A stretch of DNA of 63,309 bases, filler included, from Reclinomonas americana ATCC 50394 (Eukaryota), in the NCBI GenBank assembly GCA_048213135.1. It is 5 parts of 2 records of this genome, joined end to end, with 100 filler letters (N's around TTAATTAATTAA, not from the genome) between each part and the next. Parts side by side here need not be neighbours in the genome. Positions count along the whole stretch, not along the records: positions 1 to 31,277 come from PS015043.1; positions 31,378 to 43,024 come from PS015043.1; positions 43,125 to 50,537 come from PS015043.1; positions 50,638 to 58,482 come from PS015044.1; 1 more part is not named here. The stretch is one strand, 5' to 3'. The notes beneath the pieces are model-generated. The model was not told where the DNA came from and did not search any database. It worked only from the letters and a program-made list of their open reading frames with translations. Shown one piece after another: positions 1 to 56,600 of this stretch; position 1 is the stretch's first letter, and the number at the start of each line of letters is the position of its first letter. The translations under genes and the position numbers were made by a program.

Positions 1-484
1 TCTCTCGGCGCCAATGCCGACTCCTGGTTCCTGTATCCGCGAAGCAAGGGCGAGACGGAGCGCGATCTCACCATGCTGCACTTCCCCCACCTGTCGATTT
101 TCCGACCCTCGCTCCTGCTGGCCGAGCGCGAGGACAGACGTATCGTCGAGTGGGTCTCCCAGAAGACCGTGTTGCGTCGCGCTCGTGTCATACTTTTCTT
201 TGCTGATCGATTATCGCTGATGGCCGCCCGACAGTCCCTACCTCGGCGCGGCGCTCTTCTGGGGACCGCTGCGCAAATACCGTGCCATCCGCGTCGAGAC
301 GGTGGCGCGAGGAATTCGTGCTGACTTGGAGGAGCACCTGCCTGGCTTGCAGGCAGAGGAACAGGAGGGGTCTGCTGGGGAGCCGCAGGTGCGCATCATC
401 GACTCGGACACCATTGAAGTCATGGGCAGTGCGGGCTTGGAGGCCGATCAGGCCGACGAGGCCGCGGGTGAGGCGAGCAAGTGA
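1..484 (+). CDS. 3' part of HTATIP2/TIP30 (YraR/Fmp52-like) NAD(P)-binding oxidoreductase; exons <1-170 and 235-484
   Basis: Spliced translation SLGANADSWFLYPRSKGETERDL..FPHLSIFRPSLLLAEREDRRIVEW..V/PYLGAALFWGPLRKYRAIRVETVARGI..VRIIDSDTI resembles the family C-terminal motifs (GA..S.FLY...KGE.E, SIFRP..LL), recognised from memory. The 64-nt intron 171-234 restores the frame. Confidence 0.8.
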
Positions 485-639
485 TTTGGTGGGTTAGAGC
501 GGATGGATGGGCTTGAGGTGGTGAGGGGTGCGAAGCCTCAAAGAACACATGTGAGTTTTTGTTTTGGAGATTGTTACGAGAAAAAGAAACACGTCGACTG
601 CAATGTACAGTTGCCAATTAAAAAAACTATTGATGTTGA

Positions 640-3600: not shown

Positions 3601-6292
3601 NNNNNNNNNNNNNNNNNNNNNNNNNNNNNNNNNNNNNNNNNNNNNNNNNNNNNNNNNNNNNNNNNNNNNNNNNNNNNNNNNNNNNNNNNNNNNNNNNNNN
3701 NNNNNNNNNNNNNNNNNNNNNNNNNNNNNNNNNNNNNNNNNNNNNNNNNNNNNNNNNNNNNNNNNNNNNNNNNNNNNNNNNNNNNNNNNNNNNNNNNNNN
3801 NNNNNNNNNNNNNNNNNNNNNNNNNNNNNNNNNNNNNNNNNNNNNNNNNNNNNNNNNNNNNNNNNNNNNNNNNNNNNNNNNNNNNNNNNNNNNNNNNNNA
3901 GCTGTGCGCTCCGGCGGTCGGTGTGCCATGGTGAACGCGGGACCAGCGCGTTTGAGGTCTTGCGGTGAGTAGGCACCTTCACACACTCTCGAGAGTCAAC
4001 ACATGCATTCCCCTCTGCACACGAATCAAAGCACCAACGCACCTGGTCCGGGAATGGTGGCTGCACCAGTGGCCTCGCTGGCGATGGCATATCGTGACGC
4101 AATGGTCCACTGTGGCGACGCAGAGCGCAGACCGCGGCCAGGATCGTAGGTTCCTATTAGGATGTGCCATGAGGTCTTTTCTCCTTAAACACAAACACAC
4201 TCATAAACAATACCTGGACCGGGCTGTGGTTCTTGCGCAGACGCCTGCCCATCAATTGCTACGTGAGAGAGAGAAGCGGAGGAGGCAGAGAGTTCGAAAC
4301 GAGACAACGCACCGCCTCTTTCCATCGCTGGCCAATCGTAAACGCCTTGCCGGGTGACGTATCTGACACCTTGTACGCACCTGCAAACGATTTGGTGTTC
4401 AGATCACAACTTTTCCCAAAATACACCAGCCTTTGCAATACAAACACACCTGGTCCCGGAATGGTGTCCACCTGGCGCTCCTCGTAGCGCTGCGCAATGG
4501 TAAAGGCCGGAGCATTGCTTCGATCCTGTGGTGCGTAGGCCCCTGGTCCTGGCAGATTCTCCGTGGAGGTTTCCTGCCAGCGACCGAGCACGAGCGCGCC
4601 GCGAGTTGACATTTGGCTGTACTGCTTGTAAGCACCGGGTCCTGCACACCGGCGCGAGTGATGAGTACAATCTCTTCTTCCTGTCTACTTCTTTTTTTCA
4701 TCCCCCAACCCACCAGGACTCTCGCCAGCCTCGTGCTCCTTCAGGCGCTGGCCAATGGTGAACTCTGGTCCATGATCCTTTGGCGCGTACATGTACGCTC
4801 CTGTCCCCCATACACACTTCAGCGCCACGTGCACGGTTAGACAATCACCAAGCACAAAACACACACCTGGTCCTGGTCCTTCAGGTACACCCTCCTGCGA
4901 TTTCAGCCGCTGTCCGATGGTCCATTGCGGTAGGTGATGCAGGTGCGAGTCACCGGGGTTGTAGGCACCTGGCGTATAAACGTGAGTATGGCTGGCTGCC
5001 CACTTCTTCTCATGGTCTTCATCACACACGACGCACCAGGTGCCGGAGTCTGATTGTTGCCGCTCGAGTCTGTCGGTCGGCCCACCAGGGTTGCCGACGG
5101 CGCGTGCGAGTGCGTGGAAGGATTGTAGTCGGCCGGTCCTGGACCAGCGCGCGTCTCAGAGCTGCTGAGCCGCTCGGCAATGGTCCATGCCGGCGCTGCG
5201 TGCAGATTGCTGCCAGTGGGATTGTATTCACCTGTGAACGGGATGGTCAGCGTTGCTGACACTGACGACGATGACAGACTCTCTTGAACAAGATACGAAC
5301 CGGGTGCGGGCGTCTTTTGCGTTGTCGCCTCTTGCCACCGCGAGGCAATCGTGTACGCAGGCCCAGACATGCCCTCCGGCAGCGAGTACTCTGCCGGGCC
5401 TGGAGTGGCAGCACTGGTGGCTTGCGAGAATCGTTGACCAATGGTGAAGGCCGGAGCGCTGGCACGATTCGCATCTGACGCCTGGTACTCGGCTGGACCG
5501 GGAGTGACGGCCACATTGCTCGACTGCGACCACCGACTGGCCATCGTGAATGCCACACTCGATCGCATCTCCGGCAGCATGTACGCCGCTGGACCTGGTG
5601 TGTCGGTGGCGCCGCTCGACGCAGACAGGCGTTCTCCCATTGTGAAGGCCGGGGCGCGCGCACCCATCGAGTCCGACACGGTGTAATCGGCCGGACCCGG
5701 CATCTTATCAGGAGGTGCTTGCTCCAGACGGCCAGCAATGGTGAATGCGGGATGCCTTCTCTCCTCAGGCAACGTGTACGCGGCCGGACCTGCATCGAGA
5801 CATTCAGCGGAGGCAGGCACTGGGACGACGAAAGCTCTCCTCCATCTCCATTTCCAAACCTGGAGTTGTCGATGGCTGCGCGGCCGCATGTCGCTCGCCA
5901 AGAGTGAACGACGGGGCGCGACGACCAGTCGGATCGTGTACAAGATAGGCGGCTGGCCCGGGAGTATCCGACTGGTTAGATGCAGCCGCCAGACGCTCGC
6001 CAATGGTGAACGCAGGTCCATGTGGTCCCTCAGGCAGCAAGTATGCCGCCGGGCCTGCATCAGGTATTCACATTCAGCTCACACCACCTTCTCCCTCTCC
6101 CTCTCTCTCTCTCTCTCTCAGCTGCAGTCATNNNNNNNNNNNNNNNNNNNNNNNNNNNNNNNNNNNNNNNNNNNNNNTTCGGTCGGTTCCCCTCCGACGG
6201 ACGACGACGAACGTTAGTCGCCCGGGCCCGGCCGTCGCTACTACGTAGTTACTACTACTACTACTACGCTCACCACCTACCTCCTCCTCCTC

Positions 6293-6330
<38 letters not shown>

Positions 6331-9300
6331 TTCCGCCAACCTGGTGTATCAGCATTCGTCGGCCGTGTAGACTCATGACGCTGACCCATGGTAAACGCCG
6401 GACCGTGAGGAGCGAGTGAGGCGCTGAGAGAGTAGTCCGCGGGACCTGGCAGCTGCTCCGGTGGCACATCACGCCACCGCTGGCCAATGGTGAACGCCGG
6501 ATGACGACGCTCGTCGGGAATCAGATAGGCAGCCGGACCTGCATGGAATCGATGAGAAGAGCACAAGAAGCAGCGGTGGGAGAAAGGAGGAGCAGCGCAG
6601 TGAAACCTGGTGTGTCTGAGTTGGTGCCCGTCGGCAGATTCCACCGCCCGCCAATTGTGAACGCCGGACCGTGCGGCCCGGTGGGATCGTTTGCCATGTA
6701 GTCAGCGGGACCAGGTGCCTGCTCCGGCGGCGCGTCACGCCATCGTTGTCCGATCGTGAATGCCGGTCGTCGCTTCTCGTCGGGAATGAGGTACGCCGCC
6801 GGACCTGAGACAGCTTGTTAGAAGCCTGGGAGTCGATGGGGAAATGGTGCGGCACGTGATCAGCGTACCGGGATTGTCGGCATTGGAGGGCGCCAACAGT
6901 TCGTGTCGGCTCCCCATGGTGAATGCTGGTGCATTGGCACCCAGTGCATCGGCGTTGCTGTAGTCGGCGGGACCAGGTGTGGGATCGGCAGCAGCGTCAC
7001 GCCACCGCTGGCCAATGGTGAAGGCCGGATGCCGTCTCTCGTCGGGAATCAAGTAGGCCGCAGGACCTAACGAGAAGAACAATCAGCGAAGCGGAACTCA
7101 CCATCAGTCAACATAATATACGCAACCTGGCGTCTCCGTGTTGGTGCCGTCGGGAATGTCGTGGCGACTGGCAATCGTGAATGCTGGGCCGTTCGGGAAC
7201 GAGTTGGGCAAGAGATATGCGCCCTGTGCGGCGATTGTTGGTGTGAGAAAGCGATCGCATCTCTCGCGGGATGCAGACAACATGCACTCACAGGACCCGG
7301 CTGCTGCTCCGGTGGTGCATCTTTCGCTCGACCTTGAATGGAGAAGGCTGGTCCTTTCTGCGCAGCACAACGAAGACTCAGATGCACATTACTGCAAGTA
7401 TCGCGAATCAAGGTCCGACGCAACAGACAAGTCTCCAGGATTGTACGCCGCCTGCACAGGGAGGGGAGCAAGCACTGTGAGCATCGATAGACAGTGGCGC
7501 TGCGACAAGAAAAAGACGCAACTGGACCGGGATTGTTGTCGCCTTGCGGTGGCTCGTGGCGCCCGGTGATGGTGGCACTCGGACCGCGGGACGCGTCGCC
7601 AAGAGTGTACGCCCCCGGACCAGGACCGTCGGTGGCCACCACCGAGGTGTCTCGTCGTTGTTGGATGGTCCAGAACGGTCCCACCTGTATCCCACCAAAT
7701 GAGATACACATACTGCTGCACAACACTCTCTCTGGTCACGGAAACACACCGGCGGCAACTCAGGGGCGTAGTCGGCCTGCGTGGGTAGAGCGATGATTAA
7801 GAACACGAATATATCTCCCACGTTAAGGAGCAGATGATGATCTTCTTCGCACCGGTCCTGGCAACTTGGTGCTCTCACTAGCCTGCTCGTGTCGACCAAG
7901 CAAGACGGCACTGGGAGCGCGACGGAAGGTGCTGTCACCCGACGAGTAGGCACCTGCACCAGGCAGGTCATTCATGAGATAGAGGTGCGCAAGCAACGGG
8001 TCGTTGTCAATGCCGCACCTGGTCCGGGTCCATCGTGAGCCTCCACACTGTCACGCGACTTGTGAGGAATCGACCAGAATGGTCCCTGCGGCGGCAACTC
8101 CGGTGCATAATCCGCCTGCATTCACGCGTACACACAATCACAAAAACTGCGTCCAGAGAACGCCGAACGGTTCGCCAAGTGTGTCTCACCGGCCCAGGAG
8201 CACGCTGCTGTTCCGTACTCGCGTGGCGCTGTTGGATTGTGAATGCAGGCGCAGATGAGGGAAGTCGCGGGTCGTACGCTGCGGGTCCAGGAGTGACAGA
8301 CGCCCGTGCCTCCGCGTAGCGACTGGCGATGGTCCATGCAGGTGTGTGTGAAGCAGGCAAGTTTACAGAGTATGCAGCCTGCACGGGAAGGTGAGCATCA
8401 ATCATATCACGGAATAGCAAGTGAAACCACGCACCGGTCCTGGTGTAATGTCGGCCTCTGGCAGCTTGGTGCGATAGGCAATCGACACGGCAGGTGCGCG
8501 GCGGAATGTGCTGTCGCCCGGAACATAGTCCGCTGTGCAGATCACAGAGAGCGAGAGATAAGCGATGCGGGAAGAGGGAATGCGATTGAACAAGGACACT
8601 TTCTACGGCACCTGGACCAGGACCCTGCGCTGCGATCGAGTCGGTGGACTTGCCAAGCATCGTCCACTTTGGTGCATTCTGGTCGCAGTTGATGTCAGCC
8701 ACGCACGCATATACACACACACACACACGCATACACACATACAGAGAGAGAGAGAGGGAGGGAGGAAGAGAGAAATGCGTAGATTCTGGATTTCCCTGTT
8801 CTATCTCCTCTCTTCCCCCTCCTTTCCTCTCAGTCCCAAACTCAACAGAAGGCAAGTGTGGATCATATGCAGCCTGCAAATGGACAACATATCAGCGCAT
8901 CGCCCAACGCAGAAATAAGAAGGTTGCTGCTCTGTCGAAAAAACGCACCGGTCCTGGCGTTCGACTCGGCTCTGCAGAGCGCGGACGGTGCTGAATGCTG
9001 AAGCGCGGCGCCGATCGACGAACAGGGGAGTCATTGATGGCATAGTCGGCAGGCCCAGGCATGTCGTCGGCTCGTCGCTCGTGGTAACGCCTTTGAATGG
9101 TGAACAGCGGTCCTTTCTGTCGTACACGCAAGTGAGAACCGAGGAGTGCGATTCCGCGAAGTGCATGACTCGAAAACAACGCACAGCCATTGGAGACACT
9201 GAGTATGCTCCAGGTCCTGCGCGAAATCGGGAGGGAGTGAGCGTGAATCCTCAATCGCTTCGACAAATACAAAGCACGGACGCACCGGGGGTTCTTGACG

Positions 9301-12300
9301 GCGGCGCCGAGCTCGGTCGCTGCGCAATCGAGTGTGCTGGTGCGGAACGGCGAACGGGAGTGAGCGACACATTGTACGCCGCTGGCCCAGGTCCATTGCC
9401 CTCGATGCGTTCCTTGCGACGACCGGCAATGGTTACGCCGCCAGAACTCTTGGGAACAGCCGGTGAATATGCAGCGGGTCCTGGGCTGTCGTCGCGCGCC
9501 GGGGAACTGAAGCGTTGCGCCATCGAGAACTTGGGACCCGACTTTTTCGTCGACAATGCGTGGTCACGCGGAGCGTATGAAGACTGCGCGTGTACAAATG
9601 AGTCATGAAGGAGAACGCGAGGTCAATTATTCAATCATGCCGACAAACCGGTCCTGCAGCCATCAATCAAACATGCATGAGAACGTCATCACACGAAAAT
9701 TGAGGGTCAGTGAGAACTCACCAGGAGCTCGATGCACGGGTGCCGAGGCCGGTCGAGAAGCAATCGTGAATGCCGGTCCAGAAGACTTGTCCTTGACTGC
9801 GTACGCGGCCTACAGAGTCACACATGGTGAGATCGAAGGAACCTCGCAGCAGCAGCAAGTCAAGATGACGCACAGGTCCGGGAGTCTGCTCGATTCGTTG
9901 CGCACGACGGCTGCTTGCCATGGTCCACTCGGGGAAGTGCATCCGGTTGGAAGACGTACGATCGCGTGGGTTGTACTCGGACTGCATCAGAGAAAGTGAG
10001 TTGCAAAACGACAGAATGCGATAGATGCGGACACGCATTCTCACCGGTCCTGCATCGCAGAAGGAGCATGTCAGAAAAAGAAAAGTCAACAGAAGCAGGT
10101 GTGCACACACTTACCAGGAAGACGCTCGCGCGGGGCTGACTGAGACCGCCCAGCAATAGTGTGCGCAGGAGCACGCGGGTGCATTGATGAGAATCGCGCA
10201 TCGGGCGAGTACATGCCAGGCCCGACAGCCGAGGTCTCGTCCGGAAGATCGTGGCGACCAGGCATGGTCCACGCTGGTTGCGACCGATGGGCCGACGACA
10301 TGCGATCATTGGGCATGTATCCACCGGGTCCAGGACCATCGGGGCGCGCCTGCAACGGGTCACCCAAGCGCATACCGATTGTCCACGACGCAGCGAGCGG
10401 GTGCTGCGATACCATACGATCTTGCACATTGTATGCAGCCGGTCCCGGTCCGGCAGTGGTGTACGCACCGTCGTCGTCTGCTCGTCCAGGCATGGTCCAC
10501 GCCGGTGGCGCAGGGAACTTGGAGGAACGGCCATCTGACGGTCGGTAATTGCCCTGCGTGGCGGCATTGGTGAGCACATGAGGAAGGCATTGAAGACAGA
10601 GAGTTGCATGCCGCTCCATACCGGTCCTGCACAAATATGCGACGTTAGTTTCCTCAACATAACAAGGATGACAGAAGCGTTGATTTTCGTACCTGGCGTG
10701 GCGTCTGCCGGCAGGTCGTGATATCGACCCTGCATGCTGTACATGGGACCGCGACCTGGTGCTGGTAGCGAGTAGTGCGCAGGTCCTGATATACGAGGTT
10801 GCACACAGTCAGCGGTGAGATGCAGGCAATGCAGTGAAGTGGAAATGAAATCGACTGACCAGGGCCAGGAAGCCATTCGGCTTCGGCATAGCGCTGACCA
10901 ATCGTATACGCTGGTCCAGAGGGGTGCTGCGACAGGTGCCGCGGATCGCCGCTGTACATGCCCTGCAATCAGAAGCAAAAAAAGTGAGTCACCAGCGCCG
11001 CGCATCACTGACATCACTCGGTGAATCACCGGTCCTGCACAGAGAAGATGAGCCGAAAACCGAAGGGGAAGCGTGAAGGAACAACCAAGCGTAACACGCA
11101 CCAGGAGTCATTGGCGGAGCACTCTGGTCGTATCGGCCAGCAATCGTGAACGCTGGCCCACGAGACAGCTCCGGGAGAGTTACCGAGCCCTGAATCGATA
11201 CCTGTCAACTCTTTTTTCTTCCAACACGCGAGGAGAGATTGGAGGTACACACACCGGTCCAGGCATGGAGGTCGGTTCGTGCCCTTCACCGCGGCCAGGC
11301 ATGGACCAAGCGGGTGCAGCTGGATGCGTTGAATCGCGCACATCTGACGGTCGGTAGTCACTCTGCACGCACGATAAAGCAACACAAATGAGCATCATCT
11401 CCAAAGAGAGACAATAATATACGATCGCACCGGTCCTGGCACCAAGAAACCAAGTCAGCATTCTGGGGCGAAAAAAACACCATTCACCAAGAGACACATA
11501 CCGGGTGACGCCTGTCGCGGAGGTGCACTGCGCGGGCGACTGGACATGGTGAACTCCGGTGCGCGTGGTCCGCGCATGCCAGGCGAGTATGCTCCCGGTC
11601 CTGCGAGCGCCGATTAATAAAACATGAGCTCGCTTTCGCAACAATACAGCGCACAAACCTGGCGTGCCGGCCATCAGTGCCTCCTCGTACCGACTGGCAA
11701 TGGTGTAGGCCGGTGCCATGGGTCGTGTGGACAGTGTGCCGTCGTGCACCGAATATGCTCCCTGGAAGCATAGGAAGTGAGCGTTACGTGAGAGACGGGG
11801 TCAAGTGGGATGATGCTGCACAAACCGGGCCTGCGATGGGGAGAAAGTGAGCGAGAGAGGTCAAAGCAGAACGAGAGCAGGGAGAAATCTCACCGGGGTT
11901 GTCCGGCGGTGACGATGACGGCAGTCGTGCGCCCATGACGTGCGCCTGACCACGATCGGTTGCCGGCAGTGTGTACGCACCCTGCGTGTCAAACGATTAG
12001 CAAACAATAATCATCACAGCATCAAGCCATGTGTCACGCAACGGGTCCCGGAGCAGGATGCTCGTCACGAGAAGGGTAGCGACCGGCAATCGAGTATGCA
12101 GGCGCATTGGGGTGCACGGCGAGAACGCGATCGTTGCCATCGTATGCAGCCTGTGAGGCGATCATCAATGATATTGCAGTTTGCGTCGCCCCTGCACAAA
12201 AAACGTTGACAAACCGGTCCTGGTGTTGGCTCTTGTGCAGCATCGTGATGACGTCCCTGGATGGAGAACCGCGGAGCCAACTTGCGAATAATGGCCTCGA

Positions 12301-14164
12301 CAATGTGGTAGTGAGCGGGACCTGGCGTCGAGATGCTGCGAGCAGCCTCCTGTCGCTGACCTATGGTAAACGCAGGTCCCTGTGGACCGGTTGGAGTCGA
12401 ATAAGCTCCCTGATCGAGGACGGTGAGACAGCGACTGAGATTAGAAACATCGAGTGCACGAACCGGTCCAGGCGACATCGAACGCTCTTGCGGTTCGGGA
12501 TGGCGACCGGCGATCGTGACTCCGTGTACCGCAGGTGAGTGTGGACTGTACGCGCCCTGTGGAGGAAACGAGCGATCAGCACAAACACCTTGGGTAGTGA
12601 CGTGCCGAGAACGAGTACGAACCGGACCAGGAGTTGCCTGTCGATCCGAAGCAGCCTCTTCGCGCCTCGGTACAATCGAGTACGCCGGAGCAGTTGGGTT
12701 TGTCGATAACCTGCCATCGTCGCTGGTGTAGGCACCCTGCATGTAGCTTGATTAAGCTCGAGGACAGAAGACGGATTTGAGTCGCAGCCACGAACCGGTC
12801 CCGGTTGCGCGCTGTCGGTGTCAGACGAGGCGGGATGGCGCGACTGAATGCTCCACGACGGAGCGTTTGGATGCTGCGAGTCCATGCGCTGCTGTGGATT
12901 GTATGAACCCTGTGCAACAGGCAGCGCAGAATGAGTCGCCAAACACACGCCTCGGCAACCAGTGACCGCCACTTACCGGTCCTGGTGATGCTGATCTGTC
13001 CTGTGGATCAGGCGATTGTGGGTGGCGCGACTGCAAGCTGAATGCGGGGGCGGTCGGATGCTGTGAGTCCATGCGCTGCTGCGGGTTGTATGCGCCCTAC
13101 AAAAGACGGTGATCTGCGTGAGTGCAATACGAGAAAAGGGACGCTGCGCCCGACGAACCGGTCCCGGCGCTGCAGATCCGTCTGGCGCGTCCGACGACTG
13201 AGGGTGTCGCGACTGAATGCTCCACGCTGGAACATTTGGATGCTGTGAATCGGTGCGCTGTTGTGGAGTGTATGCTCCCTGCGTGTGACAGGAAACGGTT
13301 AGAATCGCCATCTGCAGGAGAAAATGACGTCCACACAAACCGGTCCTGCGCCGAGGAATACACACAGTAAGCATTCAGAACACAGGCAGCAGAAACAATA
13401 GACGGCACGCGCACAAACACATACCAGGTGACGAATCGCCGACTCCGCGAGGAACACTGGCAGATCGGCCGCTGATCGAGTACGCAGGCGCAGCACGACG
13501 AACAGGTGACACGTCGGCATTGTATGCACCCTGCACGTGATGCCAAGTAAGCGACATGCAGCAATGGGGCGGTACTGACAGCAAACAGACACACCGGTGC
13601 AGGCGTCCCTTGTTCCTCGCGCGGCTGCGCATGTCGTTCACCAATCGTCCACCGTGGCACCGTTGACTGCATGAGCTCCACGTTAACATTGTGCGCGCCT
13701 GGTCCCGGAGTCGGCTCGTGCCGACCGTCAGCCGACAATGGTCGAGTGCCCATGGTAAATGCTGGCGCATTTGGATGCCGGGAGGAGCTGTCGACTTGAG
13801 AATTGTATTGACCCTGCATCCACGAGTGAGCTGATGAAGTAGAAGTAAATGTGTGAGCATGTGCGCAACTGGGGCAGGCGTTGGCTGTGGATTGAACAAT
13901 GATGGAGGTCGACCAGCGATGGAGTGTGCCGGTGGGGTGGGGTTGCGCGATGACACGCGATCGTTGACAGAATATGTGCCCTGCGTCGTAGAGAAAGGAA
14001 GGGGGACACAGAGGCAAAGATGAGGCACGAGATAGAGAGAGAAGGTATGGGGAGGGGGACTGGGAGAGAGAATAAAGAGATGGGGTGGCAGAGAAAGAAG
14101 GAAATGGGGAATGAGAAGGGGGCACTGGGAAATAACAGAGGCAACAGTGAGGCAGAAAGGGGGC

Positions 14165-14211
<47 letters not shown>

Positions 14212-40381: not shown

Positions 40382-42837
40382 TGCTGAGCTGCGGCCTCAC
40401 GCATCTGGCGGTGACCCCGCTCGACGTGACCAAGTGCAACATGCAGGTGAACCCGGGCAAGTACAAGGGCCTGCTGCCGGGCATGCGCACGATTATTGCC
40501 GAGGAGGGCTCGCGCGCCGTCTGGAAGGGCTGGGAGCCGACGCTGATTGGCTACTCGGCGCAGGGCATGTTCAAGTTCGGCTTGTACGAGGTGTTCAAGG
40601 ATGTGTACGCCAACATGGTCGGCCAGGAGGCTGCCGTGCAGTACCGTGGTCTGGTGTGGCTGACTGCCTCGGCGTCGGCTGAGTTCTTTGCCGACATTGC
40701 GCTGTCGTTGCGTTTCGAGGAGAGGATAAAAAGGGGGAAGAAGAGGGGTGGATGGAAGAAGAGAAATGAGAGAAAGAGCGAGAAGCGGGGAGGGGAGAGA
40801 GAAAGAGACACGGCCTTGTGTCTCTTTTGAGAGGAGTGATGATTGACATGCGTTTGGTATCTCGCGCCGAGTGAGCGATGTCTGCCTTTTCTCTCTCTTT
40901 CTCTCTCACACCGCTCTGCATTCTTAATGCTTTTTCGCGCTCTCGCTCTGCTTACCGTGCCGTAGCCACATAGTCTCACTTTCACTGCAAAATCGCTCCT
41001 TGTTGGTACCGTTCCACCACGCACTTTCGTTCCCTTTCGTTTGTACGCGCTTCTGAATCTTTCCTGTTACTTTCCTTGACTCTGTACCCTCTGACTTTTA
41101 TTTGTTTTTATACCCCTTCTCTCCATCTTGTTAGCGCACACGCTGCTGATTACTTCCTGTCACTGCCCTTCTCCTTCAGCCTCGTACTCTATTTGTGTAC
41201 ACTGCCAAGTCCTGTCTCTTGCCTCCTTTCTTTTCCCTCTCCCTCTTTCTCTTCCCTCCCTCTTCCGCTTGCATGATCACGCGGCACAATTGCACTCAGT
41301 CTCTCTTTCTTGTTTGCACGCTCCTAAGTTTTCTCTCTCACTCATTGGATTGTGTACACTGTGCCAAGTCCTCGTGTCTCTTGCCTTCTCTCCTCTCCCT
41401 CCCTCCCTTACCTCCCTCTCCCTTCCCTCCCTCTGCCCTGCCACTCATTCCTACATCCTCTTCCCCTTTCTCAGCCCGATGGAGATGGTCAAGGTCAAGG
41501 TGCAGACGTCGCCNNNNNNNNNNNNNNNNNNNNNNNNNNNNNNNNNNNNNNNNNNNNNNNNNNNNNNNNNNNNNNNNNNNNNNNNNNNNNNNNNNNNNNN
41601 NNNNNNNNNNNNNNNNNNNNNNNNNNNNNNNNNNNNNNNNNNNNNNNNNNNNNNNNNNNNNNNNNNNNNNNNNNNNNNNNNNNNNNNNNNNNNNNNNNNN
41701 NNNNNNNNNNNNNNNNNNNNNNNNNNNNNNNNNNNNNNNNNNNNNNNNNNNNNNNNNNNNNNNNNNNNNNNNNNNNNNNNNNNNNNNNNNNNNNNNNNNN
41801 NNNNNNNNNNNNNNNNNNNNNNNNNNNNNNNNNNNNNNNNNNNNNNNNNNNNNNNNNNNNNNNNNNNNNNNNNNNNNNNNNNNNNNNNNNNNNNNNNNNN
41901 NNNNNNNNNNNNNNNNNNNNNNNNNNNNNNNNNNNNNNNNNNNNNNNNNNNNNNNNNNNNNNNNNNNNNNNNNNNNNNNNNNNNNNNNNNNNNNNNNNNN
42001 NNNNNNNNNNNNNNNNNNNNNNNNNNNNNNNNNNNNNNNNNNNNNNNNNNNNNNNNNNNNNNNNNNNNNNNNNNNNNNNNNNNNNNNNNNNNNNNNNNNN
42101 NNNNNNNNNNNNNNNNNNNNNNNNNNNNNNNNNNNNNNNNNNNNNNNNNNNNNNNNNNNNNNNNNNNNNNNNNNNNNNNNNNNNNNNNNNNNNNNNNNNN
42201 NNNNNNNNNNNNNNNNNNNNNNNNNNNNNNNNNNNNNNNNNNNNNNNNNNNNNNNNNNNNGGCCGGCACATGGCCGACTGCGCTGGTCCCCGCCACCCAG
42301 AAGATGGCTGCCGAGTCGGCCAGCACTCGCTTCCCGTTCGGCTCGCTGAAGCCGTTGTGGATGCGCCAGATTCCGTACACGATGGCCAGTTGAGTTGTTT
42401 TTTGCTATAGATTGATCTCTTGTTCTCCAACGGCGGGATTCTCACACACACTCTGTGCACACACACACACAGAGTTCTTCTTCTTCGAGAAGGTCGTGGA
42501 GCTCTTCTACACCTACGTGTTCACGAAGCCCAAGTCGGAGTACAGCAAGGCCACTCAGCTCATGGTCACCTTCGCTTCGGGCTACCTGGCTGGTGTCATT
42601 TGCGCCATTGTCTCGCACCCTGCCGACTCGCTCGTCTCTCAGCTGGGCAAGGCCGACAACAAGGGCAAGTCGATTGGTCAGATTGCGAAGGAAGTGGGCA
42701 TGAAGAAGCTGTTCACGGCCGGCCTGGGCGTGCGTATCATCATGATCGGTACCCTCACCGGTCTCCAGTGGTGGATCTACGACACGTTCAAGACCGTGTT
42801 CGGCCTCGGCACCACCGGCGGCGCCGTCAAGAAGTAA
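40382..42837 (+). CDS. SLC25A3: Mitochondrial phosphate carrier, canonical copy; first exon not visible (probably in the upstream gap)
   Basis: LSCGLTHLAVTPLDVTKCNMQVNP, YSAQGMFKFGLYEVFK, AEFFADIAL, RQIPYTMAKFFFFE, CAIVSHPAD, RIIMIGTLTGLQWWIYD..GLGTTGG. Same intron positions as the upstream copy. Confidence 0.96.
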
Positions 42838-46769: not shown

Positions 46770-46833
<64 letters not shown>

Positions 46834-49800
46834 AGTCACCAGAGCTGGAAAAAGAGATGATCAACCATAACAATAGCACCAAGAGAGCACATTACAACGC
46901 GAAACACCCAAGTCAAAGGGAGAAGGACGAAGTGGTGAAAACAAGAATAGCCAAAGTGCATCCCTTTTCGACTCACCCTTCAGCTGCTTCATCTTCTTCA
47001 GCATGGTCTCCTCCGAGTATTGCGGGTTGCCACGCGAGTCGACCAGCGGCTCGAGGAAGCGAATGGTGGACAGGTTCTGCTCAATGACCACGTCCAGCTC
47101 GCATCGATCGTCCTCGCACTGGAAGAGGATTTCGTCAAACTGGCTGCGCTTGAAGATGTTGGTGGCGCTGTCCTCGCTACCGGCCGGCATCGACACCAGG
47201 CGGTCGTTGAGGACAGAGTCGCACATTGGGTTGCGGCCCTGGTGACGCAGGCCACTTGTGCGCTCCTGCACGAAGGAAAAGGGAGGGGAGAAGGGTGAGG
47301 GAAGAGGGAGAAGGAGAAGGGCGAAGGGGGGATGGAGGCGAAGGGAGGGATGAAGGGGAAGGGAGAAGGGAGAGGAAAATGGAGAGGAGGAGTCTGAGAA
47401 GGAGAAGGAGACGGATGGAAACGGAAAAGAAAGAGAACAACAGGGAAGCTGAGAGGAAAAGAAAGGAGATGCAAGCATAAATAGAGCGAATGAGACACAG
47501 AGCGAGAGGGACGAGTAAGAGGGAAATGAAAGCGAAGCTGGGAGAGGGAACAAAAAAGAGAAGTGGAGGAACATGAAGGAGAGAAGGGGCAGGCAGATGC
47601 AACAAGCAAGAGAGGGAACAAGCAAGAGAAGTCAAGGAACATGAACGAGAGGAAAGTGACGCAAGATGTAAGAGAGCGAAAGAAACAGGGGAGAGAGGAA
47701 GGGACGAGAGACAAAAGGGCAAGAGAGAAGAGAGGAAGAGAAGGAGGGTCTTCTCCCTCGCCCTTTCTGCCTCTCCCTTCTCTTCCTTCTCTATCTTACA
47801 CACCTTCTTGTCGATCGGGCGATAGCTGGGGCCATACTTGGACTTGGCATTGGCGCCAGTCCCCTTGGTGTTGACCATGCGCAGTCCTTCGCGCAACTCT
47901 GTGTGCCAGCAGTCAGCCACCTCACACTTCTCCTCCCCTTTCCGCCTCCCGACTCACCCTGCTCCAGCTGCTCCGAGCTCACCAGCCGACCAAACTCGCG
48001 CCGCAAGTCACCATAATCGGCAATCAGGCGATCCACCGACAGCACAAAGTCCTCGCGGCTCAGTGCGCCACCCTCGCGCAAGAACGCCTGCATCTCCACA
48101 ATCACGTCGCCGGCGAGACGCGGATCGCCCGAGCGCATCTTGATGTTCTCCAAGAACGCCACAATGCGGTTCGTCGGCTCCATTGACCGCTTCGTGGTCT
48201 TCTTGGCGCCCTTGCCGCCCGCACCACCGGCAGCCGCCGAAGCACCACCTGCCACTCCCTGTGCATTACATGCATTGTGAAATTTCATCGTCAGTGCTTG
48301 TCCAGAAATGTTTTCCGAACACGCAGAGTACTAAATTGGGAGTTGACAAGAGAATATCTGACACAAACCTTGCCAGCGCCGCCAATGGGAGGCACCATGC
48401 GCGAGGAGCCGCCCTGTTGCTGCTGCTGCTGTTGTTGCTGCTGCTGCATCTCGCGTTGCATTTGCTGCTGTTGCTGTTGGCGCGCAGCGCGGGAAAGACC
48501 ACCGCCAGCACCTCCGCGACCGCCCGACACAGTGGACGAGGGGAGGAGGCCGGGATCGGGACGCAGCTGGTCCACCGGCACCGGCATGAACTTGGAGAAT
48601 TCTTCCAGCAAATCTGTATTCCCTGCAAAGCCCGCTTCGTCAGCGGTCGCAAAAAAAGCATGGGGCGATGAGGATGAACAGGTAGCGCACCCGGTTGGTC
48701 GGCAAACAGCACCGTCACTTGCTCGTACACCGTATTGATGCTCGCCTGCTTCTCTTGGTACGAGTGCAGAATGTTGAGGAAGCGACGATACACCTCCGGG
48801 CGATCCTCGTAGCGTTTCTGTGATTTGAAATGAGCGCAATGTAATGGCCGCACAACGCACAAACACACAAACCTTGATCTTGGTGACGTAGTGCACTGCG
48901 CGCAAACAAAGCAGAAGAGTGAGTTCCACAGCAAGAACGGCACCTCCACATGTCCACAACAACTCACCGGCCTGGTCAAAGTCAATCGGCGACTTGTTGT
49001 CGTCATTGGGCCCGCCGAGCAATCCACCGCCGCCACCTCCGACCGCATATCCCGCACCTCCATTGGCGTGCCCGACCATTTGCTGCACACCGAGAGCGGA
49101 CACGGCCGGATGATGCTGCTGCTGCTGCAGCGGATGATGATGCAACACGTGCAAGCCGCCCGGCACACCCGCCCCGAGCGCTCCCGCCGTGTGGTAACCC
49201 GCCAACGACATGCTCTGTTGCTCGTCGATACGATAGCCTAACACGAAAAAAGGTGAGTGTCGCTTGTGTAGTGCGCGGCTTGTGTAGACACGTACCGGGC
49301 GGCAGGAAGGCATTGAAGCCGAGAATGAGATGCGGGTAGCCCTGGAACAACTCCGAGACGCGCTCAATGACGCCCGACGTCTCCAGCGAGCCACTCTTGA
49401 AGCTGCACGCAGAGGAGGGAAGTGAGTGCGTGGAGAGAGAGTGTGTGTGTGTGACAAAAAAGAAGAGTAACTCTTTCATAATCTCGAGAAATTGCGCGTA
49501 CACATCGCCACGCGAATTCGCAAACGTCTGCTTCACTTGCTCCAAGTACGCCAACGCATCGTCGACTTTGAGTTGCTTTTGCGGTGGCGCTCTGTGGCAC
49601 AAAACAAACAAACAAAGAAAAAATTGAGTATCTTTTTTTGTCTCGTCAGACTGCGCCTTCTGTGTGTCACTCTCTCACTGCGTGTCTGTGTGGCAAAGAG
49701 GGCAGCGATCGCACAACGAGACAAGCGTTGTCTTGTGTGTGTGTGTGGCGAGCTGACAGGACACACTGCGCGCAAATGCAACACGTGCTGGTGCCTGCTC

Positions 49801-50051: not shown

Positions 50052-50637
50052 GAGAATGTAGGGTTCTTCCCCGGCCTAACGACAACAAACACACACAACG
50101 AGCGCGGTTTCGCACACACAGACAGACACACTCAGAGAACAAAGAGAGATGCGTGCACGCGCGCGTGTACACAACAACAAGCAACACAGAGACAGTGACA
50201 GCCTGTCTCTTCTTGCTCTCTCCTCTCACACAAAGCGAATGTTTTTCGGTGCACCGGCCGAAATTCCGTCGTCGGACTCGGCCCCCTTTCGCTCACTCGC
50301 CACGAGCGCACTTGTGTCTTTCACTGTGTGTGTGTGTGCGAGGGACAGTGAGTGAGTGTGAGTGCGTGCGTGCGTGTGAGAACAATGATACAATAATATG
50401 CGCGCATCGCTTTCTTTCTTGCTCAGGCACGACACTTGCGTGTTGGTTGACGTCGTGTTAGACACGCGTGCAACAGTGAGCGTGAGTGCGGGAGAGAGAA
50501 CGCACACATGAGTGGAATTACGTACATACATTTCACANNNNNNNNNNNNNNNNNNNNNNNNNNNNNNNNNNNNNNNNNNNNTTAATTAATTAANNNNNNN
50601 NNNNNNNNNNNNNNNNNNNNNNNNNNNNNNNNNNNNN

Positions 50638-53600
50638 CCATCGCTCACTTGCACAATCACCTGTAGTCCGTTGCCACTCAGACCAGCCACATTGGATCGC
50701 AAGTCGGTGCCGCTGATGTTGAACGACGCCTGATGGGTACCACCAACAATCGTGTACGTCAGTGTCTGGCCAGTGTTGGGATCAGTGGACGACAGTGTGC
50801 CGACAACGCCATTCATGGCCAGCGGGGGACTGTACGTCGAGGTGGACAGAGTCGGCGGCGTCGGCACAACGTTGGCTGTCACAAAGGCAACAGAGTGTGC
50901 GAATGAGCAGGTGCAAACGGGAAGAGGCAAAAGAACAAGCCACCTTACTGACCTTCGCTGATCGTAAATGTGGAACTCGCTGTACCACCTGCTCCATCGC
51001 TCACTTGCACAATCACTTGCAGGCCGTTGCCGGTGAGACCAGCAACATTCGACCGCAAGCTGCTGCCGCTGATGTTGAACGATCCCATGCTGGTGCCGCC
51101 CGTGATGGTGTACGTCAGCGTCTGGCCCGTATTGGCGTCTGTCGAGGCGAGAGTGCCAATGACGCCATTTGTGGCAAGTGGCGGGGTGTAAGTGCTGCTT
51201 GACAGTGTGGGCGCCGTCGGATTCACATTGGCTGCACAACAAAACAAAAGCGATGGGTTAACGAGAAACAAGAAGGACGAGCGCAGTGCGCGTCGCTCCA
51301 ACCTTCGTTGATGAGGAATGTCGCTGTGTTGGTGCCACCCGCTCCATCGTCTACTTGCACAATCACTTGGAGGTTGTTGCCCGTCAGCCCACCCACACTG
51401 GAGCGCAAATCCGTTCCACTGATGTTGAAGGATGACTGATGCGTGCCGCCAACAATCGAGTATATCAATGTCTGGCCAGTGTTCGGGTCCGACGAAGCGA
51501 GAGTGCCGATGACGCCGTTGGCCGCCAATGGTGGCACGTACACACTGGACGACAACGTTGGAATTGACGGCACCACATTGGCTGATTGGGAGGTAGATGC
51601 AGTGAGTACGTCAGACGCACAATGATTGACGCCTTTGGAGAGAGACGCACCTTCGTTAATGACAAATGTTGCAGTTGTCACACCACCAGCACCATCGCTG
51701 ACTTGCACAGTCACTTGCAGCGCGTTGCCCGTCAGGCCAGCGACATTCGAACGCAGACTCGAGCCGCTGATGTTGAACGACGCTTGATTCGCGCCACCCA
51801 CAACAGTGTACGAGAGTANNNNNNNNNNNNNNNNNNNNNNNNNNNNNNNNNNNNNNNNNNNNNNNNNNNNNNNNNNNNNNNNNNNNNNNNNNNNNNNNNN
51901 NNNNNNNNNNNNNNNNNNNNNNNNNNNNNNNNNNNNNNNNNNNNNNNNNNNNNNNNNNNNNNNNNNNNNNNNNNNNNNNNNNNNNNNNNNNNNNNNNNNN
52001 NNNNNNNNNNNNNNNNNNNNNNNNNNNNNNNNNNNNNNNNNNNNNNNNNNNNNNNNNNNNNNNNNNNNNNNNNNNNNNNNNNNNNNNNNNNNNNNNNNNN
52101 NNNNNNNNNNNNNNNNNNNNNNNNNNNNNNNNNNNNNNNNNNNNNNNNNNNNNNNNNNNNNNNNNNNNNNNNNNNNNNNNNNNNNNNNNNNNNNNNNNNN
52201 NNNNNNNNNNNNNNNNNNNNNNNNNNNNNNNNNNNNNNNNNNNNNNNNNNNNNNNNNNNNNNNNNNNNNNNNNNNNNNNNNNNNNNNNNNNNNNNNNNNN
52301 NNNNNNNNNNNNNNNNNNNNNNNNNNNNNNNNNNNNNNNNNNNNNNNNNNNNNNNNNNNNNNNNNNNNNNNNNNNNNNNNNNNNNNNNNNNNNNNNNNNN
52401 NCGAGAGCGGGGCTCGGCAGACTACTTGGACAACAGACGATGCAAACCTTCGCTGATGGTGAACGTAGACGTGTTGGTGCCGCCTGCTCCATCGCTCACT
52501 TGCACAATCACCTGCAGTCCGTTGCCACTCAGACCAGCCACATTGGATCGCAAGTCGGTGCCGCTGATGTTGAACGACGCCTGATGGGTACCACCAACAA
52601 TCGTGTACGTCAGTGTCTGGCCAGTGTTGGGATCAGTGGACGACAGTGTGCCGACGACGCCATTCATGGCCAGCGGGGGACTGTACGTCGAGGTGGACAG
52701 AGTCGGCGGCGTTGGCACAACATTGGCTATCACGCAGGCAACAGAGTGTGCAAGTGAGCGGGTGCAAAAGGGAAGAAACAAAAGAACAAGCCACCACACG
52801 GACCTTCGCCGATCGTAAATGTGGAACTCGCTGTACCACCTGCTCCATCGCTCACTTGCACAATCACTTGCAGGCCGTTGCCGGTGAGACCAGCAACATT
52901 CGACCGCAAGCTGCTGCCGCTGATGTTGAACGATCCCGAGTTCGTGCCGCCCGTGATGGTGTACGTCAGCGTCTGGCCCGTATTGGCGTCTGTCGAGGCG
53001 AGAATGCCAATGACGCCATTTGTGGCGAGTGGCGGGGTGTAAGTGCTGCTTGACAGAGTGGGCGCCGTCGGATTCACATTAGCTAGGCAAGAGACAAGAA
53101 NNNNNNNNNNNNNNNNNNNNNNNNNNNNNNNNNNNNNNNNNNNNNNNNNNNNNNNNNNNNNNNNNNNNNNNNNNNNNNNNNNNNNNNNNNNNNNNNNNNN
53201 NNNNNNNNNNNNNNNNNNNNNNNNNNNNNNNNNNNNNNNNNNNNNNNNNNNNNNNNNNNNNNNNNNNNNNNNNNNNNNNNNNNNNNNNNNNNNNNNNNNN
53301 NNNNNNNNNNNNNNNNNNNNNNNNNNNNNNNNNNNNNNNNNNNNNNNNNNNNNNNNNNNNNNNNNNNNNNNNNNNNNNNNNNNNNNNNNNNNNNNNNNNN
53401 NNNNNNCGATGGGTCAGCGAGGACAAGAGAGACGAGCGCAGTGCGCGTCGCTCCAACCTTCGTTGATGAGGAATGTCGCAGTGTTGGTGCCGCCTGCTCC
53501 ATCGTCTACTTGCACAATCACTTGGAGGTTGTTGCCCGTCAAATTCGACACAGCTGTCACGAGGCTGTTCCCACCACTGACTGAAAACAGAGACTGATTG

Positions 53601-56600
53601 GTGCCGCCAGAGACATAGTAAGTCAACGACTGCCCCGAGTTTGGGTCTGTCGACGACAGCATGCCAATGACGCCGCCAAGTGCCAGTGGCGGCACATATG
53701 TCGACGACGACAGCGTTGGTGCAGTTGGTATCACGTTGACTGCAGCCACGAGGGGTGAACAACATTGCGGATAAACAAATAAGGAACAGGATTGACTGAC
53801 GCAACGCTCATCAATGTCGAATACAAAAGAGTTCGTACCACCAGAGCTGGCCGTGACAGTGATCTCAACATGCAAGTTGTTCCCGACAAGGCCCGCGACG
53901 TTGGATCGCAGGTCCGTGCCACTAATGTTGAAGGATGCTTGGTCGGCGCCGCCCGTGATCGAGAATGTGAGCGTGTCACCAGCCATGGCAGGTGTTGCGG
54001 AGAGAGTGCCAATCACGCCATTCAGAGCACGCGGCGGCGTATACAACGTTGTCGACAAGACGGGGACCGTAGGGCTCATGTTGGCTGCAAGGAAAGAGTC
54101 AGCGCACCAATGGCGATCTCATTACAGATCATCTGCATCACACAAACCTTCCGAAATGTTGAACGTGGACGAGCGAGTTCCACCAGCTCCGTCGCTGACA
54201 GTGACAATCACTTGAAGTCCGTTGCCGGTGAGGCCAGACACACTGGAGCGTAGACTCGTGCCGCTGATGTTGAATGATGCCGAGTTGGTGCCGCCGGTGA
54301 TGGAGAAGGTCAGTGTCTGACCGGTGTTGACATCGGTTGACGCCAGAGTGCCAATTACTCCGTTCAGCGCGAGCGGCGCCACGTACAAGTTGGTGGAGAG
54401 TGTCGGCGCAGTGGGTGCCACATTGGCTGTGCTCATAGAAATGTGTGATGAAGTGGATTAGCAGTGAATGAGCGCATCGCCTTACCTTCAGATATGTTGA
54501 ACGTTGTCGTATTCACACCGCCAGCGCCGTCGCTCACTTGCACAATCACTTGCAGGCTGTTGCCAGTGAGGCCTGCCACATTGGATCGCAGGTTGGTGCC
54601 GTTGATGTTGAACGAGGAAGAGTTGGTGCCACCAACAATGGAAAATACGAGTGTCTGGCCCGTGTTCGGGTCTGTCGACGACAATGTGCCAATCACACCA
54701 TTCAACGCGAGTGGTGGGGTGTACGTGGTCGATGACAGAGCGGGAGCAGTGGGGACCACGTTGGCTGTGCAGAGCGGCGTCAGCGACTGAGACAGAGAAG
54801 CACACAGTATGAAGCACAGGAAGGCATGATCACCTTCGCTGATGGTGAACGTCGTGCTCGCCGTGCCGCCTGCTCCATCACTCACTTGCACAATCACTTG
54901 AAGGTTGTTACCCGTCAACCCAGCCACATTCGATCGCAAACTCGTGCCACTGATGTTGAAAGAAGCTGAGTTGGTGCCGCCCGTGATCGTATAAGTCAGC
55001 GTCTGGCCAGTGTTGGGGTCCGTAGACGACAGCGTTCCAATTGTTCCGTTGAGAACGCGTGGCGGAGTGTAGGTCGAGGAGGACAGCGTTGGAGCACTCG
55101 GCGCAACATTCGCTGCGAAAAGGTGAGGACATAAACCACACAGACGTCACACCGAACGGCTTAAAAAGCGGAGGGTACACGCACCCTCATTGATCGTGAA
55201 TGTCGTGCTTGCCGTTCCGCCTGCTCCATCGCTCACTTGCACAATCACTTGCAGATTGTTGCCAGTGAGGCCAGCAATGCTGGATCGCAAGCTGGTACCG
55301 CTGATGTTGAATGACGCTTGATTCGTGCCACCGGTGATCGTGTACGTGAAAGTCTGACCAGTGTTGACATCCGTCGACGCAAGGGTGCCGATCACTCCGT
55401 TCGAGGCAAGTGGCGGAGTGTACGTTGACAAAGACAGGGTCGGCGCAGTCGGATTCACGTTCGCTGCCATGGTCACGACGAATGAGTCACACACCAAACT
55501 CATAACATCACTCACAAATTCTCGCGCATACCTTCGTTGATGGTGAAGGTTGTCGTTGCCGTCAGCGTTCCGTCACTGACGCGCACAATCACTTGCAACC
55601 CGTTGCCCGTGAGGCCGGCCACATTCGATCGCAGACTGGTTCCACTGATGTTGAAGGAGGCTAGATTCGTGCCACCGGTGATGGTATAGGTGAGAGTCTG
55701 ACCGGTATTGACATCGGTTGCCGACAGCGTGCCGATCACTCCGTTTGAGGCAAGTGGTGGAGTATACGTCAACGAAGATAACGTTGGTGCCGTCGGCGCA
55801 ACATTGACTGTAACAAAAAAACAATATTAATCACGACAAACATACTACTCTATCGTTGAAAGCTTGTGGAGCACAACGCACCTTCGCTGATGGTGAACGT
55901 GGCGCTTGCCGTACCACCCGCTCCATCACTCACTTGCACAATCACTTGCAGGCCGTTGCCTGTGAGACCAGCCACATTCGAGCGCAGACTGGTGCCACTG
56001 ATGTTGAACGAAGCCGAGTTGGTGCCACCGGTGATCGTGTACGTCAGTGTTTGACCGGTGTTGACATCTGTTGACGCCAGAGTGCCGATTGCTCCATTCA
56101 GCGCAAGCGGCGGCATGTATGTCGATGAAGATAGGGTCGGCGCAGTCGGATTCACATTGGCTGCGATGGACGATGAGTATGCACAACCCAATCTATCCGA
56201 GTAAAAGGGAAGTACCTTCGCTGATCGTGAAAGTCGTGCTTGCTGAGCCGCCTGCTCCATCGCTCACTTGCACAATCACTTGCAAACTATTGCCCGTGAG
56301 GCCAGCCACATTCGATCGCAAACTGGTTCCACTGATGTTGAATGAAGCGGAGTTGGTGCCACCCGTAATTGTGTATGTCAGTGTCTGACCCGTGTTGGGG
56401 TCGGTCGACGCCAGAGTGCCGATCACTCCGTTCGAGGCAAGTGGCGGAGTGTATGTCGACGACGACAGGGTCGGTGCAGTCGGATTCACGTTCGCTGCAA
56501 CGGATACGAAGAGTGAGCAACCACGACCAACTCGTTCCCCATATCAATTGACAACACAGACCCTCATTGATCGTGAATGTTGTACTTGCTGTTCCACCTG

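Follow-up and report, generated by a model that had tools for sequence, protein, structure and literature searches.

GTTGCGT-type intron starts after exons that do not end in G suggest a second way of recognising 5' splice sites in a 63-kb stretch of the Reclinomonas americana genome

Introduction

The original papers on shifted and bulged pairing registers between human 5' splice sites and U1 small nuclear RNA (snRNA) are reportedly those of Roca and Krainer from 2009 and of Roca et al. from 2012. Here, we analyze the 5' splice sites (donors) in a stretch of 63,309 bases from the draft assembly of the intron-rich eukaryote Reclinomonas americana ATCC 50394 (GCA_048213135.1), which is called the window below. 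Among 114 catalogued donors 16 (~14%, about one in seven) read GTTG[CA]G[TC] instead of the usual GTNNGT, and nearly all of them follow an exon that does not end in G. These GTTGCGT-type starts suggest a second, routinely used way of recognising the beginning of an intron.

Non-canonical U1 registers have been established experimentally in human cells (PMC4856993). At shifted and at +2/+3-bulge sites U1 pairs one base out of register, and the cut stays at GU (PMC4856993; reviewed in PMC9311317). Among 201,541 human sites, 68 are predicted to use the +2/+3 bulge register, a number that falls to 54 after curation, and all validated non-canonical registers together account for 1.5% (PMC4856993). 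The GTT class of the window resembles the human shifted and bulge sites in that it lacks G at +5, regains the consensus one base further on, has U-U after G+1 and is apparently cut at GU (compare PMC4856993); the human shifted-register model site likewise has A, and not G, at position -1 (PMC4856993, Table 2). Unlike these rare human registers, the GTT class is characterized by its high share of donors, a near-invariant heptamer and an almost absolute coupling to a non-G exon end.

A further point of comparison is provided by Entamoeba and Mastigamoeba, where a changed U1 recognition sequence matches a lineage-specific donor consensus (Roy and Bowser, bioRxiv 10.1101/2022.06.08.495308). A single consensus has replaced the standard one genome-wide in these lineages, whereas in the window two forms coexist within the same genes. 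The pattern reported below is known in kind from the human registers, and a heptamer class of this frequency and with this dependence on position -1 appears to be a new variant. Its absence from print rests on our limited searching of the literature, which returned nothing relevant on heptamers and splicing and, on shifted registers, only human work, a tunicate paper mentioning the possibility and the Entamoeba preprint.

Results

The GTT class and the last base of the exon

All donor results presented here were obtained from the DNA of this one window and from protein comparisons. A preliminary description of this DNA had listed 20 donors with an extra T after GT, and all 20 motifs are present at their coordinates and strands, namely 12 GTTGCGT, three GTTGCGC, three GTTGAGT, one GTTCCGT and one weak GTTACTC (49471). 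The statement that position -1 is A, C or T in 18 of the 19 GTT-type sites, with G at 7126 as the sole exception, is correct. As donors, 16 of these 19 sites are required by the reading frame together with a conserved protein, a repeat motif or exon periodicity, whereas 16428, 24975 and 29703 could not be verified and are treated as candidates.

These 16 donors (10 GTTGCGT, three GTTGCGC and three GTTGAGT) were compared with all other supported donors of the window. Ordinary donors, which carry G at +5 and include three GC-AG introns, number 88, and 82 of them follow an exon-final G while six follow A, C or T. The GTT class shows the reverse distribution, with one member after G and 15 after other bases (A 6, T 5, C 4). 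Four donors with an extra base elsewhere (GTATCGT, GTGCCGT, GTATTGT, GTGATGT) all follow G, and six donors of neither pattern are divided into five after G and one after another base. Thus, a non-G base at -1 is found in 15 of 16 class members and in seven of the 98 other donors. The resulting table (15, 1, 7, 91) gives a Fisher p of 1.2e-12. Removal of identical contexts and of the second of two paralogous phosphate carrier genes leaves 104 donors and p = 8e-11, and addition of 13 weaker donors gives p = 1.4e-13. The claim of a distinct GTT class, in which G is shifted from +5 to +6 and which is tied to a non-G last exon base, is therefore strongly supported within the window.

The association persists when donors with the same core are compared. 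GTG[CA]G[TC] occurs 19 times after G and five times after other bases, GTTG[CA]G[TC] once and 15 times, respectively (p = 1e-5). The five ordinary donors after non-G exon ends that had been listed before (7291, ~9184, 9873, 14301 and 37248) were found again, and 33168 is a sixth. All six have the strong core GTG[CA]G[TA] (GTGCGT four times, GTGAGT and GTGCGA once each). An extra T is accordingly present in 15 of the 22 donors after a non-G exon end, and among strong-core donors in 15 of 21 after non-G as compared to one of 20 after G.

A comparison independent of the gene finder is offered by the large sperm-tail PG-rich-repeat (STPGR/SHIPPO) gene, where a simple search for Pro-Gly-Pro codons directly before GT yields 21 homologous sites between 15884 and 7291 on the minus strand. 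All 15 sites in which the last proline codon is CCG have ordinary donors, whereas four of the six with CCA, CCC or CCT carry GTTGCGT and the other two GTG[CA]GT (0/15 versus 4/6; Fisher p = 15/5985 = 0.0025). Position -1 is the synonymous third codon position at these sites. The exon-final proline codon is CCG in 15 of 21 cases as compared to five of 21 for the first proline codon of the same motif, and the exon-final G itself is therefore under selection. Synonymous codon choice at exon ends is, as far as these codons tell, visibly shaped by splicing. In a gene of cadherin-like repeats, the junction base is G in 30 of 31 cases, and the single C, at 53805, precedes the only GTTGCGT donor of that gene.

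Sequence features of the class

Positions +3T, +4G and +6G are invariant in all 16 members, and +7 is T in 13. Position +5 is always C or A and never G, which makes the class a poor match in the canonical register. Its positions +4 to +7 correspond to the commonest positions +3 to +6 of ordinary donors (GCGT, GAGT), so that the class consists of these cores placed after GT and one T. When the first 45 nucleotides (nt) of the 16 introns are aligned, columns 1-4 and 6 are the only invariant ones, and there is no consensus past column 7. The sites lie in six unrelated genes and in all three intron phases. The class is therefore neither a repeat family or set of copies of one element nor a codon artefact. 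A family of introner-like or repeat-derived introns, which was considered separately, was ruled out, as the similarity along the class introns does not extend past column 7.

The heptamer GTTGCGT as such is not over-represented in the window (14 copies observed, 9.75 +/- 2.8 in shuffled sequences), and all 14 copies are on the sense strand. For GTTG[CA]GT, 16 of 18 sense-strand copies are catalogued donors, and one copy is antisense. With A, C or G in place of the extra T, 0, 9 and 11 sense-strand copies are found, respectively, none of which is a donor. Six cadherin-like exons contain GTTGCGC six bases inside the exon, where it is unused as a donor; thus, the heptamer alone is not sufficient.

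GT is present at the start of all 16 class introns, and AG at the end of all 15 whose acceptor lies in sequenced DNA (the acceptor of 32633 is beyond a gap). Within their last 45 nt, class introns and ordinary ones alike have motifs resembling CTCAC, CTGAC or CTAAT 15-30 nt upstream of CAG, as judged by eye and not by a statistical test, and by inspection the class introns resemble neighbouring ordinary introns in length. On account of these like 3' ends, both sets of introns are likely to use the same, major GT-AG spliceosome. Like U12-type introns, the GTT class forms a second donor class beside the major one in the same genes. Its donors are presumably unlike the minor-class (U12-type) donor motif. 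An identity as U12-type introns was rejected, as only seven 5' bases are conserved and the 3' regions are not distinct from those of ordinary introns. With about 14% of donors the class is also far commoner than U12-type introns are in humans (0.36%, PMC4856993).

Gene models that fix the junctions

The genes and sites of the window are listed in Table 1. The corrected STPGR model comprises 62 exons and has stop-free frames of 1,891 amino acids (53 exons) and 536 amino acids (nine exons) on either side of an assembly gap. In it, 48 of 51 Pro-Gly-Pro motifs are followed by [GASQ]xY, across junctions. Because the corrected model is free of stops and keeps this motif, 7126, 7424, 7522, 8846, 12042, 13869, 15043 and 15712 are fixed as donors. 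As a separate observation, the 1,891-residue open frame requires seven microexons of 5 nt, each of which consists of two bases completing a glycine codon and CCG, lies between two short introns and restores Pro-Gly-Pro-Gly-x-Tyr.

The exons of phosphate carrier 1 (37157-37247, 37306-37630, 38372-38538 and 38599-38935) are in frame only with the donors 37631 and 38539, and the spliced protein aligns to eight database homologues without any gap within 12 residues of every junction. Its closest database proteins, from chytrids, oomycetes and metatranscriptomes, are at most 65% identical. Scanning metagenomes for carrier relatives yielded three loci with 44-55% identity, which were left out of the analysis. 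In the exon that was compared, carriers 1 and 2 are 71% identical at the amino-acid and 81% at the nucleotide level, and their intron positions and donor forms are conserved; the conservation of the heptamer between them is uninformative, as third codon positions are still 73% identical. Donor 42389, for which a fixed position had been claimed, is indeed placed by its correspondence to 38539.

The cadherin-like gene, whose repeat has mostly bacterial cadherin-domain proteins as closest database relatives (33-50% identity), encodes one repeat per exon of 279 or 276 nt, separated by phase-1 introns of 54-82 nt. Donor 53805 preserves the length of 279 nt and the phase of the neighbouring exons.

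For 32633, likewise proposed to be fixed by a conserved protein, the match to the SNF2 profile extends to profile position 181 at 32635, and on the following piece it starts again at 181. After 31633 the continuation of the SNF2 match in the next frame is weak. At 171 the proposal holds for the upstream side: a PDB match to TIP30 (2fmu_A, E 9.5e-9) extends to directly before the donor, and no other GT..AG pair leads in phase into the open frame downstream. For the downstream exon no support was found in Pfam or PDB. The weak site 49471 is a plausible donor that fits the PAH profile; without G at +6 it is not a member of the class.

Table 1. Genes, donors and candidate donors of the window. A slash marks the exon-intron boundary; nt, nucleotides.
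Feature	Position	Strand	Basis or remark
TIP30/HTATIP2-like gene	left edge of window	+	PDB match
Sperm-tail PG-rich-repeat (STPGR/SHIPPO) gene, very large	~16,230-3,900	-	profile matches and gene model
PQQ-like beta-propeller open reading frame			profile match; closest proteins at most 40% identical, mostly prokaryotic
SNF2/SRCAP-like gene	32599-35070	-	Pfam SNF2
SNF2/SRCAP-like gene, consecutive part across gap	31386-31914	+	Pfam SNF2
Mitochondrial phosphate carriers 1 and 2, tandem paralogues	37157-38935 and ~40300-42836	+	homologues
Sin3-like gene with PAH repeats	site 49471	-	PAH profile
Gene of at least 31 cadherin-like repeats	50638-63309	-	one exon per repeat
T/GTTGCGT donor, phase 2, TIP30/HTATIP2-like	171..177	+	2fmu_A match to residue 55 of 56
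G/GTTGCGT donor, phase 1, STPGR; sole class member after G	7120..7126	-	open 1,891-residue model; restores P-G-P-A-A-Y
T/GTTGCGT donor, phase 0, STPGR; ends 27-nt exon (7451-7425)	7418..7424	-	open 1,891-residue model
A/GTTGCGT donor, phase 0, STPGR; after Pro-Gly-Pro	7516..7522	-	open model
T/GTTGAGT donor, phase 0, STPGR; ends 27-nt exon paralogous to 7451-7425	8840..8846	-	open model
C/GTTGCGT donor, phase 0, STPGR; after Pro-Gly-Pro	12036..12042	-	flat scoring and open model
A/GTTGCGC donor, phase 0, STPGR	13863..13869	-	open model
A/GTTGCGT donor, phase 0, STPGR; after Pro-Gly-Pro	15037..15043	-	read by hand (gene finder wrong here) and open model
T/GTTGCGT donor, phase 0, STPGR; after Pro-Gly-Pro	15706..15712	-	open model
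A/GTTCCGT, candidate donor of first STPGR exon, unverified	16422..16428	-	phase 1 fits acceptor ~16222; several models possible at the 5' end of the gene
A/GTTGCGT, candidate donor	23370..23376	-	beyond the earlier list; gene-finder prediction only
A/GTTGCGT, candidate donor	24969..24975	-	fits acceptor 24870, as does G/GTTGCGT at 24987-24993
A/GTTGCGT, candidate donor	29697..29703	-	acceptor within or beyond assembly gap 28531-29108
T/GTTGCGC donor, phase 1, SNF2/SRCAP-like piece	31633..31639	+	Pfam SNF2 match ends at 31631
A/GTTGCGT donor, phase 1, SNF2/SRCAP-like	32627..32633	-	SNF2 profile 181/181 join; acceptor beyond gap
C/GTTGCGC donor, phase 2, phosphate carrier 1	37631..37637	+	frame; eight homologues, no gaps at junction
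A/GTTGAGT donor, phase 1, phosphate carrier 1	38539..38545	+	frame, flat scoring, eight homologues
C/GTTGCGT donor, phase 2, phosphate carrier 2; position as 37631	40707..40713	+	paralogue
A/GTTGAGT donor, phase 1, phosphate carrier 2; position as 38539	42389..42395	+	paralogue, flat scoring
A/GTTACTC, weak non-consensus donor, Sin3 PAH domain; outside the class	49465..49471	-	PAH profile starts at position 13 in next exon
C/GTTGCGT donor, phase 1, cadherin-like gene	53799..53805	-	279-nt exon period kept
Seven 5-nt STPGR microexons	13345-13341, 11830-11826, 11435-11431, 11034-11030, 10626-10622, 10049-10045, 9653-9649	-	required by the open frame

Catalogue of donors

The window contains 28 runs of N, and its genic GC content is ~0.55. 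The region-trained gene finder combined coding potential with an acceptor matrix and accepted GT, and in one run GC as well, as donor; it made no use of exon-end information. In the first passes donor scoring was flat, every GT being equal, and short exons were skipped; these passes alone recovered six class sites (38539, 42389, 53805, 12042, 7522 and 7126). In later passes an equal bonus was given for G at +5 or for +3T with +6G, which could favour the GTT class over other odd donors and cannot create a dependence on -1. Rows were then corrected by hand or dropped wherever the motif, stop codons or the exon period revealed an error. Left out were 6385, which crosses a gap, 58585, which extends into one, and a false split at 15130/15042; relocated were 16170 to 16116, 13418 to 13424, 11095 to 11101, 10108 to 10114 and 5027 to 5036; replaced were 53838 by 53805, 52449 by 52447 and three false CAA/GTGCC donors by GC donors. 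GC donors in the STPGR gene were rejected, as the sites concerned are ordinary GT donors. The supported catalogue of 114 donors comprises STPGR 60, cadherin-like 31, Sin3 10, SNF2 7, carriers 5 and TIP30-like 1. The 13 further donors mentioned above are gene-finder-only or unverifiable and were kept apart.

Other donors and features of the window

The four donors with the extra base at a position other than +3 are located on the minus strand at 14454 (G/GTATCGT), 8611 (G/GTGCCGT), 4213 (G/GTATTGT) and 61677 (G/GTGATGT) and have G/T at +6/+7. They match the asymmetric-loop and +4/+5 bulge registers of Tan et al. 2016 (PMC4856993), in which G/GUAUUGU is the model site for the +4/+5 asymmetric loop. 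Unlike the GTT class, all four follow an exon-final G, and there are only four such cases. Five donors on the minus strand, GTACTTGT at 63224, GTACTTCC at 56215, GTGATCAT at 54833, GTTTCACT at 6606 and GTGATTCA at 11029, have neither +5G nor +6G, and all follow an exon-final G. Where this G is present, the intron side can be very loose. At 61327, 59944 and 57944 on the minus strand, GC-AG introns (G/GCATGT) occupy the same position in three copies of the cadherin-like repeat; a gene finder restricted to GT trimmed 24 nt from these three exons.

Among the candidate sites, the GTTGCGT copies at 24993 (after G) and 24975 (after A) are 18 nt apart in the same phase and may be alternative donors that add or remove six residues; the flat-scoring gene finder chose 24993 and not 24975. 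For 29703, G/GTTGTGT 15 nt upstream is an alternative donor, and the exon that ends at 29704 found no support in Pfam or PDB.

The gap 31914-32534 separates the two SNF2/SRCAP-like parts, one of which is on the plus and the other on the minus strand; this is most simply explained by a misoriented contig in the scaffold. The gaps 31278-31377, 43025-43124, 50538-50637 and 58483-58582 have an identical layout of 44 N, 12 bases and 44 N, which looks like an artefact of assembly or masking.

Discussion

We take GTTG[CA]G[TC] to be a real alternative donor of ordinary, major GT-AG introns in this organism, cut before GT and used almost only where the last exon base is not G. The extra T after GT moves the conserved G/T from +5/+6 to +6/+7. 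As the most likely mechanism we propose recognition by U1 in a register displaced by one base, to which we assign a probability near to even, although a little short of it. U1 snRNA, and perhaps later U6, would pair one base out of register, and the intron's G+1 would face the U1 nucleotide to which exon G-1 normally pairs. T+3 would then replace T+2, and G+6/T+7 would replace G+5/T+6; equivalently, one of the two T's would be bulged. The catalytic centre would still cut at GT, as it does in humans at sites of the shifted and +2/+3-bulge types. In this way G+1 of the intron would stand in for the absent exon G, which would explain why this form appears where G-1 is missing.

Nearest-neighbour duplexes were predicted with RNAduplex for the standard 11-nt U1 5' end as printed in PMC4856993. 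With this U1, the register that places +1 opposite C9 is selected at seven of 20 sites, the canonical register at one and neither at 12. All seven have an exon ending in CA and pair at -2, -1, +1, +3, +4, +6 and +7.

Several observations weigh against a displaced register. The predicted duplexes with standard U1 are weak (class mean -2.3 kcal/mol, n=20, versus -6.2 kcal/mol for ordinary donors, n=96). In nine of the 16 members position -1 is C or T, which cannot extend the shifted helix, and +5 is C in 13 of 16 and not the A favoured by standard U1. In the duplex model the pairing of N/GTGCGT is at least as good, yet after non-G this form is found less often (six versus 15). Moreover, the data come from one window, a single gene contributes eight of the 16 sites, and two sites are paralogous copies. 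Ordinary donors after non-G are also weak with standard U1 (-1.1 to -6.6 kcal/mol). Since the extra T brings no predicted gain over N/GTGCGT, stability alone does not explain the preference. As modelled here, the displaced register describes the pattern and does not yet explain the preference.

The weak predicted pairing could instead reflect an snRNA, altered or additional, that pairs continuously with GUUGCGU. Candidates are a U1 variant whose 5' end complements the heptamer and an altered contact of U6 or U5, and two recognition RNAs would then operate in the major spliceosome. We regard this as unlikely, at perhaps one chance in several. It would fit the tightness of the class, with three invariant positions as compared to free variation at +3 and +4 of ordinary donors. 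Neither C at +5 of the class nor the pyrimidines at +4 of ordinary donors (64/82) are preferences of standard U1, and together they suggest, as a weak hint, that the organism's U1 or its use may differ from the standard. There is a precedent in the U1 that co-evolved with atypical donors in Entamoeba and Mastigamoeba; according to the same source, however, Thecamonas and Micromonas have a standard U1 despite a preference for +4C (bioRxiv 10.1101/2022.06.08.495308), and the sequence of U1 can therefore not be predicted from donor preferences. Both donor classes have similar 3' signals, and full complementarity of a variant to the heptamer would, taken alone, leave the avoidance of exon-final G unexplained. 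A scan of the window with Rfam matched no RNA gene and no snRNA gene. In its fullest form, a two-code major spliceosome would read G exon ends with GUNNGU, and A, C or U ends with GUUG(C/A)GU through a dedicated RNA (a second U1-type snRNA) or an altered U5/U6 contact, genome-wide, thereby easing the coding constraint imposed by exon-final G; this we likewise hold to be rather improbable.

It is similarly doubtful, in our estimate, that no special recognition is involved, that only the strongest cores G[CA]GT are tolerated after non-G, and that the extra T is neutral or driven by mutation, the link being local to a few gene families. The loose donors accepted after exon-final G (the five without +5G and +6G and the four GTNNNGT) are in line with such tolerance, as are the shared strong core of all six ordinary donors after non-G, the missing U1 energy advantage of the extra T and the half share of one gene in the class sites. 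Against this, the extra base is T in 16 of 16 cases, and a neutral variant should not depend on -1 as the extra T does among strong-core donors; in addition, the sites are spread over unrelated genes and all phases with flanks unrelated beyond +7.

Finally, it is very improbable that the junctions are misplaced and the real cuts lie elsewhere, e.g. one base downstream (G/TTGCGT) or at neighbouring GTs: a slide by one base leaves the messenger RNA identical where the next exon starts with G and is even synonymous at 37631, but it needs TT..GN introns although all cases are compatible with GT..AG, the use of neighbouring GTs would break the phase or introduce stops, and the 1,891- and 536-residue frames, the exon period of 279 nt and the gap-free homologue alignments need exact junctions.

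Overall, non-canonical U1 registers are rare exceptions in human genes, whereas in this window a form of this type, if the displaced register is correct, would make up roughly a seventh of all donors and about two thirds of those that follow a non-G exon end. A single exon base decides almost entirely whether it is used. Should the same be true of the whole genome, the organism would provide a natural system for defining the contribution of exon-final G to the recognition of 5' splice sites and the way in which this task is divided among U1, U5 and U6. Gene finders trained on GTNNGT would then misplace a tenth or more of the introns of this organism, and the choice of synonymous codons at its exon ends would be shaped by splicing.

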